64,000 nt of DNA from Octopus vulgaris (Eukaryota), in NCBI GenBank assembly GCA_951406725.2, contig OX597821.1:40982001-41046000 (forward strand), given 5' to 3'. Within the stretch, counting starts at the first letter, position 1. Each line of letters begins with the position of its first letter. Under the pieces are notes generated by a model. It was not told where the DNA came from, made no database searches, and saw only the letters and a list, made by a program, of their open reading frames with translations. Positions 7,165-52,150 of this stretch are shown here, one piece after another. Position numbers and translations under genes: made by a program.

Positions 7165-7500
7165 GTGCAATGCAGGTTCAATTCCTATCTGTCTGTTTAT
7201 AATTTATCAATTTGTTGTTCTTTCTTTCTCATATATATATATATATATATATATAAAACCATCCGAGCATCCGAGCGTGCAATGCAGGTTCAATTCCTAT
7301 CTGTCTGTTTATAATTTATCAATTTGTTGTTCTTTCTTTCTCATTATATATATATATATATATATATAAAACCATCCGAGCATCCGAGTGTGCAATGCAG
7401 GTTCAATTCCTATCTGTCTGTTTATAATTTATCAATTTGTTGTTCTTTCTTTCTCATTATATATATATATATATATATATATAAAACCATCCGAGCATCC
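7165..7500. repeat. Three tandem copies of a 112-113 bp unit containing a (TA)n tract
   Basis: gtgcaatgcaggttcaattcctatctg starts at 7165, 7277 and 7390. Confidence 0.95.
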
Positions 7501-7922
7501 AGAGCAACAAACTGGCTTCTGTGTCGGTGGCACATAAAAAGCACAATTCGAGCATGATTGTTACCTGCGATGCCTTACTGCCACTTGTGCTGGTGGTACG
7601 TGAAAACAACATTTGAGTGAGATCATTGCCATTGCCACTGGACTGGCTCCTGTGTACGTGGCACATAAAAGACATTTTAGTGTGGCCATTGCTGGTACCG
7701 TCTCACTGGCCCTCATTCCGGTGGAACGTAAAAGCACCCACTACACTCTCAGAATGGTTGGTGTTAGGAAGGGCATCCAGCTGTAGAAACTCTGCCAGAT
7801 CAGATTGGAGCCTGGTGCAGCCATCTGGTTTGCCAGACATCAGTCAAATCGTCCAACCCATGCTAGCACGGAAAGCGGACGTTAAATGATGAAGATGATG
7901 ATGATGATGATGATGATGATGA
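7483..7922 (+). mobile_element. RTE LINE 3' UTR with internal ~60 bp repeats and (GAT)n tail
   Basis: Same tail as the RTE ORF-bearing copies at 23306-24092 and 38632-39517. Confidence 0.85.
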
Positions 7923-7925
7923 ATG

Positions 7926-7957
<32 letters not shown>

Positions 7958-8406
7958 TTAATAAGGGTGAGAGAATTAGATACTAATTTAATAGTATATT
8001 TATTCCACACCAAGTGGCCTAGTGCTACGAGAAACCTGGATTATTATAATATTTTATAACATATTATAATATTTTCACAAAATAAATATAAGAGAGTGGT
8101 CACTATATTGATCACTCTAGCACCAGTTAATCCAAAAGGTTTCAACCACGAAAAATACATGTTTCCCATGAAAGCCAGTACGACTGTTAGCTCACACGGA
8201 CAGGGCAAATAAAAAATAACAAAAATAACAAAAACATTAATTATAATTATGCTGCATTTATTTCTAAATGCTGTATTTGTTTTCCGTGAGAGTTTGGCGC
8301 GCTGTTGGTTGGGGCATTTGAATTATAACGTCCGATGTAATCAATTGAACCGCACGCGTATTTATCGTTATGGTAAAATCTGGCGTGTGATTGAGTGGAT
8401 TTCATC

Positions 8407-8500
8407 CAGATAGTCTTGGCTGAAGAGCTACAAATGGATTATTGTAAGTAATATTACATTTAATTCATTAATAGCGAAACAATTGTCCCAAAATAATCTG
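8407..8500 (+). ncRNA. Type I hammerhead ribozyme, copy 1
   Basis: Stem I cagat..ttgg/ccaa..atctg; core CTGAAGA 8420-8426; stem II gcta...tagc 8427-8475; GAAA 8476-8479; stem III AC-AATT-GT; GTC triplet with predicted cleavage after 8487. Confidence 0.88.
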
Positions 8501-8940
8501 TATTTTTGTTATTTTTTATTTGCCCTGTCCGTGTGAGCTAACTGTCGTACTGGCTTTCATGGGAAACATGTATTTTTCGTGGTTGAAACCTTTTGGATTA
8601 ACTGGTGCTAGAGTGATCAATATAGTGACCACTCTCTTATATTTATTTTGTGAAAATATTATAATATGTTATAAAATATTATAATAATCCAGGTTTCTCG
8701 TAGCACTAGGCCACTTGGTGTGGAATAAATATACTATTAAATTAGTATCTAATTCTCTCACCCTTATTAATTAATTATAATTATGCTGCATTTATTTCTA
8801 AATGCTGTATTTGTTTTCCGTGAGAGTTTGGCGCGCTGTTGGTTGGGGCATTTGAATTATAACGTCCGATGTAATCAATTGAACCGCACGCGTATTTATC
8901 GTTATGGTAAAATCTGGTGTGTGATTGAGTGGATTTCATC

Positions 8941-9034
8941 CAGATAGTCTTGGCTGAAGAGCTACAAATGGATTATTGTAAGTAATATTACATTTAATTC
9001 ATTAATAGCGAAACAATTGTCCCAAAATAATCTG
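8941..9034 (+). ncRNA. Type I hammerhead ribozyme, copy 2
   Basis: Same sequence as 8407-8500, offset +534. Confidence 0.88.
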
Positions 9035-9474
9035 TATTTTTGTTATTTTTTATTTGCCCTGTCCGTGTGAGCTAACAGTCGTACTGGCTTTCATGGGAAA
9101 CATGTATTTTTCGTGGTTGAAACCTTTTGGATTAACTGGTGCTAGAGTGATCAATATAGTGACCACTCTCTTATATTTATTTTGTGAAAATATTATAATA
9201 TGTTATAAAATATTATAATAATCCAGGTTTCTCGTAGCACTAGGCCACTTGGTGTGGAATAAATATACTATTAAATTAGTATCTAATTCTCTCACCCTTA
9301 TTAATTAATTATAATTATGCTGCATTTATTTCTAAATGCTGTATTTGTTTTCCGTGAGAGTTTGGCGCGCTGTTGGTTGGGGCATTTGAATTATAACGTC
9401 CGATGTAATCAATTGAACCGCACGCGTATTTATCGTTATGGTAAAATCTGGTGTGTGATTGAGTGGATTTCATC

Positions 9475-9568
9475 CAGATAGTCTTGGCTGAAGAGCTACA
9501 AATGGATTATTGTAAGTAATATTACATTTAATTCATTAATAGCGAAACAATTGTCCCAAAATAATCTG
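9475..9568 (+). ncRNA. Type I hammerhead ribozyme, copy 3
   Basis: Same sequence as 8407-8500, offset +1068. Confidence 0.88.
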
Positions 9569-10008
9569 TATTTTTGTTATTTTTTATTTGCCCTGTCCGT
9601 GTGAGCTAACAGTCGTACTGGCTTTCATGGGAAACATGTATTTTTCGTGGTTGAAACCTTTTGGATTAACTGGTGCTAGAGTGATCAATATAGTGACCAC
9701 TCTCTTATATTTATTTTGTGAAAATATTATAATATGTTATAAAATATTATAATAATCCAGGTTTCTCGTAGCACTAGGCCACTTGGTGTGGAATAAATAT
9801 ACTATTAAATTAGTATCTAATTCTCTCACCCTTATTAATTAATTATAATTATGCTGCATTTATTTCTAAATGCTGTATTTGTTTTCCGTGAGAGTTTGGC
9901 GCGCTGTTGGTTGGGGCATTTGAATTATAACGTCCGATGTAATCAATTGAACCGCACGCGTATTTATCGTTATGGTAAAATCTGGCGTGTGATTGAGTGG
10001 ATTTCATC

Positions 10009-10102
10009 CAGATAGTCTTGGCTGAAGAGCTACAAATGGATTATTGTAAGTAATATTACATTTAATTCATTAATAGCGAAACAATTGTCCCAAAATAATC
10101 TG
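10009..10102 (+). ncRNA. Type I hammerhead ribozyme, copy 4
   Basis: Same sequence as 8407-8500, offset +1602. Confidence 0.88.
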
Positions 10103-10245
10103 TATTTTTGTTATTTTTTATTTGCCCTGTCCGTGTGAGCTAACAGTCGTACTGGCTTTCATGGGAAACATGTATTTTTCGTGGTTGAAACCTTTTGGAT
10201 TAACTGTTGCTAGAGTGATCAATATAGTGACCACTCTCTTATATT

Positions 10246-10281
<36 letters not shown>

Positions 10282-10285
<4 letters not shown>

Positions 10286-10504
10286 AGAAAATGGAGAAAA
10301 CTTCAGATCAACAAACAAATCAATTGGACCACATCTGCAGCTTAGTTAATATGTAAAACATGACAACATTTATGTGACATAACAATTCTTACAGCCGTTT
10401 CTGCTTCCGATACCAGTCAGTATCGGAAGCAGAATAATAATAAGCTGTAGATGTGGTCCAATTGATTTGTTTGTTGATCTGATTTTTTTCTCCATTTTCT
10501 CATT
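10282..10504. repeat. Fold-back (inverted repeat) element, probable Penelope pseudo-LTR relic
   Basis: About 63 bp outer arms (10282-10344 and 10441-10504), inner 15 bp hairpin ttctgcttccgatac/gtatcggaagcagaa, minus-strand GAAACGGCTGTA. Confidence 0.7.
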
Positions 10505-11271: not shown

Positions 11272-11279
11272 ATATATAA

Positions 11280-11612
11280 ATGATAAAAAAGAAACTGGAG
11301 AGTTTTAACAGAACTCTCAATTTATTAACATTTTTCTCATTTTATACAAGCCTACAATTGTTTCCATATCTACGCTCACTTACATTACAAATTTATAATT
11401 CAAAATTGCATTATGAAAATTAAAAGGTAGATATTTTTTCAGATTGAAAATTACCTCATAATTTTCATAATGGAATTTTCATAATGCATTTCAATTTATA
11501 AATTTATAACCTGAATGAGGGTAGATAAGGAAACAATTGTAGACCTGTATAAATTGACAAAATGTTAATAAATTGATAGTTCTCTGTTAAAACTCTCATT
11601 TTTTCTTCATCA
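11280..11612. repeat. Diverged fold-back with decayed hammerhead, Penelope-type relic
   Basis: Arms include ctacaattgtttcc/ggaaacaattgtag; minus strand reads CTGAAAA-a-atatctac...gtagatat-g-GAAAC-AATT-GTA. Confidence 0.65.
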
Positions 11613-11835
11613 TATACTACAATAAATTATGCCCATATATATTGAAGTGAAACAAGCACCTATATAAAGAATACCCAAACTCTGTAATGTATTTAATATT
11701 GGTGCCTATTAAATAATAAATACTAATACTACCATGAAATGCAGGACAGGGGAAAGTTTCCCCAATATATTGGGTGAAACCAGAGAAGCTTGAATGTAAA
11801 CATCCCTTTAAAGAGGAATCTATATCCTCACAATA

Positions 11836-51464: not shown

Positions 51465-52150
51465 TAGACAGGGACCTTCTCTTTGTGGCTAGTGACTTCA
51501 ATGGACATGTTGGACAACATACAGGGGCTTCCATGATGTCCATGGAGGCTACGGTTTTGGTTCCCGCAATGAGGAGGGAACCATTCTGCTGGATTTCTAT
51601 GATGCAAATGATCTTACGCTTTGCAATACTAACTTCAGGAAACCTGCCAGTCATCTAGTCACCTACCGTTCTGGCAGACACACTAGCCAAATTGACTACA
51701 TCCTCACTAGAAAAAGGGAAAGATGTCTGCTTATAAATGCCAAAACCTTCCCAGGTGAAGAATGTACCCCACAACATAGACTAGTAGTTAGCGACTTCAG
51801 GATCAAGGCTAAATGGATGCCCAGAAGACGACCAGCATGGAGGAGCAGGGTCTGGAAGCTTGTGCCGGTGGCACATGAAAGACAACATTCGAGCAAGGTC
51901 GTTGCTAGTACTGCTGAACTTTTGAGCGTGGCCATTACCAGTACCGCCTGACTGGCCCTCATTCCGGTGGCACATAAAAGCACCCACTACACTCTCAGAG
52001 TAGTTGGCGTTAGGAAGGGCATCCAGCTGTAGAAACTCTGCCAGATCAGATTTGAGCCTGCTGCAGCCTTGTGACTCACCAGTCCTCAGTCAAACCGCCC
52101 AACCCATGCCAGCATGGAAAGTGGACGTTAAACGATGATGATGATGATGA
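51465..52150 (+). mobile_element. RTE LINE AP-endonuclease fragment joined to 3' UTR
   Basis: SDFNGHVG...NTNFRKPASHLVTYRSG..TSQIDYIL...QHRLVVSDF...RVWKL, then directly the 3' UTR repeats from about 51862. Confidence 0.85.

Follow-up and report, generated by a model that had tools for sequence, protein, structure and literature searches.

Animal retrozymes make RNA circles, and it has been proposed that Penelope-like elements (PLEs) copy them, and do so from circles (PMC7229834; bioRxiv 10.64898/2026.07.22.740005). The metazoan non-LTR retrozymes of Cervera and de la Pena (2020, PMC7229834), for which circles and cleavage were demonstrated, are described there as non-coding tandems with a GC content below 50%, one type I hammerhead per unit, a strongly self-paired monomer and a target duplication of more than 4 bp, in genomes that also contain PLEs; units of the invertebrate members measure ~170-400 nt. 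Vertebrate retrozymes (Li, Clavereau, Pollet 2026, bioRxiv 10.64898/2026.07.22.740005) are tandem type I hammerhead units of 51-972 bp that are proposed to borrow the PLE enzyme. In the available text of that preprint the link to PLEs is co-occurrence and pLTR similarity, the mechanism is left open and no mollusc is named among the 35 genomes. PLEs themselves carry an inverted, 5'-truncated copy and a tail of 30-40 bp that is often present at one end only (Craig et al. 2021, PMC8557442). In vitro, AT-rich DNA is cut on both strands by the protein of the Anolis PLE Poseidon, which then extends each of them; two internal RNA start sites 3' of the hammerhead, 30-40 nt apart and with no difference seen between the strands, bound the tail of the element (Frangieh et al. 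2024, PMC11167929).

Here, we describe a putative non-LTR retrozyme family, in our view a new one, from a stretch of 64,000 nucleotides of Octopus vulgaris DNA (the window), with unusually direct genomic evidence on its mobilisation. Our main reading, to which we give a probability of roughly 0.6, is that the family is a non-autonomous retrozyme that would be copied by the reverse transcriptase (RT)-endonuclease of a PLE from a single, probably circular, 534-nt RNA. The insertion record matters more than the ribozyme, as it ties a retrozyme to PLE-type two-ended priming: from hundreds of young insertions one can read where copying started, how the target was staggered, how far each run went and which template was used.

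The complete element of the window occupies 7951-10249 and consists of two head-to-head arms, both with their 3' ends outward into (TA)n. The left target tract (7926-7950; TRF 7926-7952) is followed by an inverted arm on the minus strand (7951-8227) with unit positions 266-541, a 100% match to unit 266-534, whose outer end is fixed end A, ..CCCTTATTAATTAATTA and then the TA repeat. As read from the junction sequence, the inner ends of the arms are joined by an 8-base filler (8228-8235), a near copy of the adjoining A-rich letters. The main arm (8236-10249, plus strand) comprises three full 534-bp units and unit 1-412, and ends outward in fixed end B, ..CTCTCTTATATTTATT, again followed by the TA repeat of the right target tract (10250-10280; TRF 10240-10280). 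Every unit contains a 'tail' of ~128 nt from end B (unit 412-416) to end A (unit 541), for example 8648-8776 on the plus strand, as defined by the ends in 39 loci and by 67 A+B pairs. LTR-type ends are absent, the element ends adjoining (TA)n directly, as is a protein-coding frame. The original prediction, made from the letters of this stretch, had described a tandem array of 534-bp units with three variable sites and no meaningful ORF. All of this was borne out: the period is 534 from 8236, the lag-534 mismatches up to 9715 lie at 8384, 8543, 9452 and 9673 only (the variable unit columns are 149, 308 and 370), and no ORF of at least 100 aa overlaps the array. Its 3' end has to be moved from 10247 to 10249, and the element had been taken as single-armed, the inverted copy of unit 266-541 at 7951-8227 having been overlooked.

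With consecutive type I hammerheads, no ORF, dispersed copies, a duplication of more than 4 bp and a highly self-paired monomer, the window family falls within the sequence-level definition of a non-LTR retrozyme as given in the texts of PMC7229834 and bioRxiv 10.64898/2026.07.22.740005. It shares with the metazoan retrozymes of PMC7229834 the sequence properties listed above, including the presence of PLEs in the same genome, but its unit is longer than those of the invertebrate members and its helix II far exceeds theirs in length; the text of that paper has no description of insertions with two arms and two fixed ends, and for the octopus family cleavage and circles are predictions. With the vertebrate retrozymes it has in common the tandem type I hammerhead units and the proposed borrowing of the PLE enzyme, whereas the link to PLEs is here one of insertion anatomy, and no parent pLTR was present among the PLE candidates compared. 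The hammerheads of newt and axolotl satellite 2 are similar in their short helix III, palindromic loop and expected better cutting as a dimer (PMC7229834, PMC4209133, as far as described there), but here the arrays are short, dispersed and two-armed and helix III has two pairs. Two other classes were considered and rejected: the LTR retrozymes of plants, whose LTRs contain a type III hammerhead and whose target duplication is 4 bp, given the type I topology and the 14-15 bp duplication here, and an autonomous PLE, as there is no RT plus GIY-YIG ORF in the array.

The four type I hammerhead motifs, with CUGAAGA, GAAA and GUC^CCAA in each unit, are real. They lie on the plus strand at 8414-8493, 8948-9027, 9482-9561 and 10016-10095, with the CUGAAGA core starting at 8420, 8954, 9488 and 10022 and predicted cuts after 8487, 9021, 9555 and 10089; motifs 2 to 4 are identical to that of unit 1. 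The latter is built of helix I UUGG/CCAA, the core CUGAAGA..GAAA, a long helix II and a palindromic helix III, ACAAUUGU, in which two pairs are closed by AAUU, the eight letters forming the palindrome. The search with the Rfam type I hammerhead model gave a divided answer: RF00163 matched 8414-8493 with its positions 1-45 in full (26.6 bits, E 6.6e-5, in a 141-base stretch), but the score is below the gathering score of 34, due to a 37-base insertion in helix II, and RF00163 was absent from the matches at E<=1 when 4.5 kb were scanned. By core and helices the motif is thus hammerhead-like, but by score it is no Rfam member. The region 8405-8500 folds better than any of 200 shuffles (z -3.41). 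Its lowest-energy fold contains helices I and II but lacks the 2-bp helix III; the full hammerhead fold has -18.2 as compared to -20.8 kcal/mol, a cost of 2.6 kcal/mol. Hammerheads with a palindromic short helix III are described to cut better in pairs (PMC4209133). Altogether, ribozyme activity is a probable prediction, to be viewed against the one of nine Xenopus retrozyme dimers reported as cleaved (bioRxiv 10.64898/2026.07.22.740005).

Cleavage at these sites would release 534-nt monomers (8488-9021, 9022-9555 and 9556-10089, plus strand). The monomer 9022-9555 folds with -153.9 kcal/mol (z -6.26); as a circle the value is -147.2 kcal/mol (z -7.0), while 40 shuffles give -109.4 +/- 5.4 and the opposite strand, with -109.0, lies at the shuffle mean. 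It is the hammerhead strand alone whose fold is far more stable than that of shuffles. In the main family the 12 core positions are nearly invariant, free position 7 is A, C or G in 51, 24 and 12 loci, and two loci carry CCGA in the core; core invariance alone is not significant, since only 71 of the 534 columns vary in two or more loci. An independent test for pair-keeping changes, with three folds of single sequences, gave a null result (p 0.6, 1.0 and 0.49); recurring changes keep and break pairs 17/11 times versus 17/16 for single changes (p 0.6). In the consensus fold, which was fitted to the same alignment, 33 one-sided and 2 two-sided changes keep pairs and 21 break them.

An older sister family (L057:5955-6650, minus strand; L347-L356), with a period of about 538 and 2814 candidates, has 62% identity to the unit over 695 columns (E 3e-41) and possesses two ends and inverted arms of its own. 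In the 9 of 11 copies whose motif was read, helix I is swapped to ACUCCA/UGGAGU or ACCUCA/UGGGGU, CAAUUG is kept in 8/9 copies, the core is CCGA in 5/9, and helix II opens with a U-U mismatch (9 copies). Further type I hammerhead families are found in L200-L228: a short-helix group ends in (TA)n about 50 nt past the cut, several members having a CCGA core, and a second group has a helix II of 70-80 nt. The other hammerhead families from the Rfam genome search (59 matches from 73 scored candidates, 30 of which were compared) have nothing in common with the unit beyond AT-rich stretches. A likeness to a tRNA-type A/B box at unit 303-355, noticed by eye, is doubtful in view of T runs inside the unit and the loss of the A-box part in the sister family.

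The window element belongs to a dispersed family. A search of the 2.8-Gb genome with the unit gave 843 candidates, 40 of which were scored and yielded 193 matches. Exact junctions with TA were found 834 times for end A and 390 times for end B, and the 27-base hammerhead stretch of the window has 173 exact copies, each with a reversed control of 0. We sampled 38 loci from the similarity list, a set biased to long young copies, and 80 of 100 listed end-A sites, a set biased to copies with end A. All of them belong to the family and are mostly 85-100% identical to the window unit. An attached ORF was seen in none of these 118 loci: a linked RT/GIY-YIG frame, for which the original prediction had suggested a search, is missing inside the array, and the PLE fragments present in 7/118 loci lie outside the arms. 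The fragment in L057, the one read in detail, was rejected as a parent, as microsatellites lie between it and the sister repeat. The concern that the array is an assembly artefact, or the motif a chance one, can draw on the near identity of the units and the Rfam score below the gathering threshold, but there are matches elsewhere in the genome, and other loci, in the hundreds, differ in their number of units, have alleles of their own and contain hammerheads with compensatory changes; its probability is negligible.

The outer ends of the family insertions are at unit 541 (A) or 412-416 (B), and then the TA repeat follows. From 119 loci scored, 114 were kept; L177 and L179 are segmental duplicates of L073, L053 is at a contig end, L162 has too short an A arm and L163 is complex, and L031, L049, L164 and L168 were corrected by hand. 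The 114 loci comprise 71 with A+B, 2 with A and another end, 35 with A only, 6 with B only and none with A+A or B+B. Two-armed head-to-head loci account for 73/114, and 71 of these 73 have one end A and one end B, ~128 nt apart. Before cleaning, A+B was counted in 25/28 and 45/50 two-armed loci of the two sets. After cleaning, the set that was sampled without regard to ends has the A+B pairing in 27 of its 28 two-armed loci (p 1e-7 versus independent ends), and in the end-A-chosen set p is 2e-8. Most of 67 A+B pairs lie in pure TA, which is uninformative on duplication, but 12 have G or C in the flank: 7 of them exhibit an exact target duplication of 14-15 bp, 3 a partial or ambiguous one and 2 none. 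The clearest case is L033, an insertion outside a TA tract with a clean 14-bp duplication. Of 76 inner junctions, 42 show overlapping arms, 12 are flush and 22 contain extra letters between the arms. The mean arm run is 911 nt, which corresponds to about one stop per 911 nt; 29 of 75 end-A arms exceed 534 nt, and arms longer than 3 kb are present in both the 99% and the 96% subfamily.

This insertion anatomy is the tail plus inverted-copy anatomy of PLEs. Two fixed ends, inverted arms, 14-bp duplications and the (TA)n target link the retrozyme to PLE-type mobilisation, and we consider it highly probable that the family is mobilised by a PLE. The retrozyme identity and Penelope mobilisation put forward in the original prediction therefore gain support, even though only one of the two arms had been recognised there. 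Among PLEs, those of the Hydra clade, in which Craig et al. list a family from an octopus (PMC8557442), are similar in their (TA)n target, inverted 5' copy, one-end tail and hammerhead near the 3' end as described; the window family differs in having no ORF, no end sequence in common with them, whole-unit tandems in place of ORF plus pLTR, and a tail of ~128 nt instead of the 30-40 bp described for PLEs (PMC8557442). It has in common with Poseidon two internal RNA start sites 3' of the hammerhead that bound the tail, but here each insertion has one of each and the distance is ~128 nt. The family also has a bearing on the tail of PLE insertions and on the reason for its restriction to one end.

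What was the template? Units diverge by 0.14% within arms, 0.16% between the arms of one locus, 0.15% within an insertion as a whole and 2.8% between loci, and the 63 multi-unit loci represent 44 sequence types. Fourteen alleles were found at a single locus each and there in every unit, 6 of the 14 in both arms. The predicted cut site is crossed in 318 of 325 arm passes, so the RNA template was continuous there, and the junctions at the cut site are seamless in nearly all units. If copying had begun anew at A or B once a cut 5' end was reached, the half of the unit with the hammerhead would be missing. This is not the case, and the template should have been a circle, an uncut multimer or monomers jumped end to end. 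The low divergence within insertions, together with arms that cross the cut site, favours a single monomer that was copied repeatedly as the best fit to the template data, and we hold it reasonably likely that a single circular monomer would be the main template. The rolling-circle explanation of the array offered by the original prediction would fit such a template, but head-to-tail arrays alone are no proof of it, since Chlamys elements without a hammerhead also make such arrays (PMC8557442).

These Chlamys arrays would agree with PLE-driven copying of an uncut linear read-through transcript of a source array, in which the hammerhead is a passenger or acts late. In line with such a template, the anole PLE mainly used uncut RNA in vitro and the hammerhead was dispensable, for the one PLE tested (PMC11167929); moreover, helix III has 2 bp only and is missing from the lowest-energy fold, and L229 and L230 are mosaic arrays. 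However, arrays copied in this way could only shrink, given the mean run of 911 nt, yet there are arms above 3 kb in both subfamilies, and a separate long and uniform source would have to be assumed for every one of the 44 internally uniform types that the 63 loci represent. Unit-specific variants, in addition, are not passed between loci, as only 3 of 86 within-locus minority alleles, each a C>T change, were found again at another locus, and the two arms do not mirror them in register. We therefore regard a linear read-through template as unlikely.

Returning to the single circular monomer, three loci do not fit easily. In L064, L164/L230 and L168/L229 (3/45 two-armed loci) minority alleles are present in both arms, out of register, and these mosaics argue against a simple circle; they would require either several templates, which may have been mixed, or an exchange between units once inserted. 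The long arrays of L229 and L230, with a total of 11-17 units, are composed as mosaics from a few alleles common to both arms, and L230 contains a repeated four-unit block.

Mosaics would be explained if cut linear monomers were used and the PLE enzyme, on reaching the 5' end of one, jumped to a 3' end, be it that of this monomer or of a different one, with no covalent circle. Arm ends that are slightly more frequent than expected immediately inside the cut site (unit 253-270; 13 versus 6.5 expected, p 0.015 uncorrected) and changes exactly at the predicted cut site in L064, in three places, and in L043 point in the same direction. The changed letters of L064, present in a single unit on either arm, are also those of the inner junction at which its arms meet. 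An apparent excess of ends at the cut site itself (unit 241-260; 14 versus 7.2) was discarded, as it came to 12 versus 7.0 (p 0.054) without segmental duplicates. Template jumping by R2/LINE enzymes usually adds or loses letters, whereas nearly all unit junctions are seamless here and stops at the bond are not raised (unit 250-256; 3 versus 2.5 expected), which makes jumping between linear monomers improbable.

The preprint on vertebrate retrozymes favours, in its available text, a minisatellite-like model with unequal exchange (bioRxiv 10.64898/2026.07.22.740005). According to such a model single copies insert and then grow and are homogenised locally. Arrays indeed change after insertion, since L179 lost one unit with respect to its segmental duplicates L073 and L177; variants common to adjacent units in the window, L043, L044 and L183 and the four-unit block of L230 would also be in accordance. 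But unequal exchange needs an arm that already has more than one unit, hence a multi-unit or circular template; the proportion of end-A arms longer than 534 nt (29/75) and oppositely oriented arms that are as alike as the units within one arm speak against it, and we judge it very improbable as the origin of the arrays. No run recorded as RNA was listed for the unit's words. In run X1, presumed to be RNA although its type is unrecorded, the family is represented by a single 563-letter contig (the 533-letter unit plus 30, one haplotype, depth 52), which fits a circle and an array transcript equally and is given no weight here. Runs of four other organisms contain 0.32-0.44 of the unit's words.

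For copying from a circular monomer by a PLE enzyme, the following sequence of events can be envisaged. Transcription would read through the array, and the hammerheads are predicted to cut at GUC^C, probably aided by pairing of two palindromic helix III loops; by analogy with coral, mussel and axolotl retrozymes, the monomer would then be ligated to a circle. A PLE protein would cut (TA)n with a stagger of ~14 bp, a duplication that is observed, the enzyme being supposed. One DNA end may prime at RNA site A and the other at B, ~128 nt away; the ends and their pairing are observed. Copies would run, as the arm lengths attest, for ~0.9 kb on average, across the cut site and round the template, with variable stops, and the inner ends would be joined, as observed mostly via a few common letters, to give the two-armed array. 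It is tempting to speculate that each insertion is the work of two RTs of one PLE dimer, starting at two sites on one circular RNA and completing, independently of each other, up to eight or more rounds, a picture to which we give slightly less than even odds. If true, this would be an actively spreading circular-RNA retroelement in which each insertion fixes the sequence of one circle, and target priming of the rolling-circle, two-ended kind could for the first time be read from an animal genome; the rule of one A and one B would also show that the two PLE start sites belong to two DNA ends. With two RNA sites and a (TA)n substrate named, the proposed life cycle can be tested directly in vitro.

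The helper was sought among the PLEs of the genome. Its Hydra-type and Neptune-type PLEs both have the same long-plus-short end pairing and the (TA)n target. A Neptune-type family (L139-L155) has many open 781-aa RT+GIY-YIG frames that overlap an upstream 479-aa frame, a 504-bp pLTR, a 38-nt tail and a (TA)n target. Motif scans revealed no canonical hammerhead in its pLTR, and the best match of the pLTR to the unit had E 0.14. Having no sequence in common with the unit, this 781-aa family was rejected as the parent, and a hammerhead beside the Neptune-type copy L117 was found to belong to a separate Hydra-type insertion. Hydra-type PLEs (L281, L309-L346) are abundant, with 19821 endonuclease candidates, and were recognised by the RWK, DKT, CxCX5C, CxxC and CxH motifs given in section 11 of PMC8557442. 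The endonuclease of L281 has a GIY-YIG Pfam hit; L339:2251-5091 (minus strand) is an open frame of 947 aa without Pfam hit. In two-armed Hydra-type copies a long and a short end are about 100 nt apart in 9/12 rows (one locus twice), and the other three were read as long arms missed by the pattern; a tail of ~100 nt is three times the length described for PLEs. Their hammerheads have a long helix II, a palindromic helix III and helix I UUGG/CCAA or UUAG/CUAA. The 3' regions resemble the unit at the hammerhead only (69% over 88 columns, E 5e-4), and in helix II there is a weak likeness, matched by 10-66 of 500 shuffles, or none, with 274-327 of 500 shuffles doing as well. No autonomous PLE sharing 3' ends with the unit was found among the 150 of 6136 and 150 of 19821 candidates that were scored, far fewer of which were compared. 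As a first guess, a Hydra-type element has an even chance of being the helper; a Neptune-type element is a rather unlikely candidate, and another element more unlikely still. Naiad elements, a further group considered for this role, are described as having no canonical hammerheads and as leaving remnants in cephalopods.

In the literature we found neither a cephalopod retrozyme nor a two-armed retrozyme insertion; the supplements of PMC7229834 and of the 2026 preprint may bear on this. The text and supplement of a recent octopus repeat annotation (PMC13282606) contain, in the parts available, no mention of hammerhead, ribozyme or retrozyme; in the repeat library behind it the family may be an unnamed entry.

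Several other features accompany the element. Two inverted-repeat elements of MITE-like build follow at 10284-10502 (arms 10297-10344/10441-10488) and 11277-11616 (arms 11277-11406/11488-11616); miRNA and snoRNA hits near 10284-10502 were below threshold and stem from this unrelated inverted repeat. Five other transposon-like frames of the window had no Pfam hit, and 51496-51951 gave a weak endonuclease-reverse transcriptase match (PF14529, E 0.006). On the other side, three 113-bp tandem copies containing (TA)n are present at 7165-7505, and the 63-66 bp repeats at 7511-7880 come from an element of very high abundance, with deep coverage in all four sequencing runs compared.
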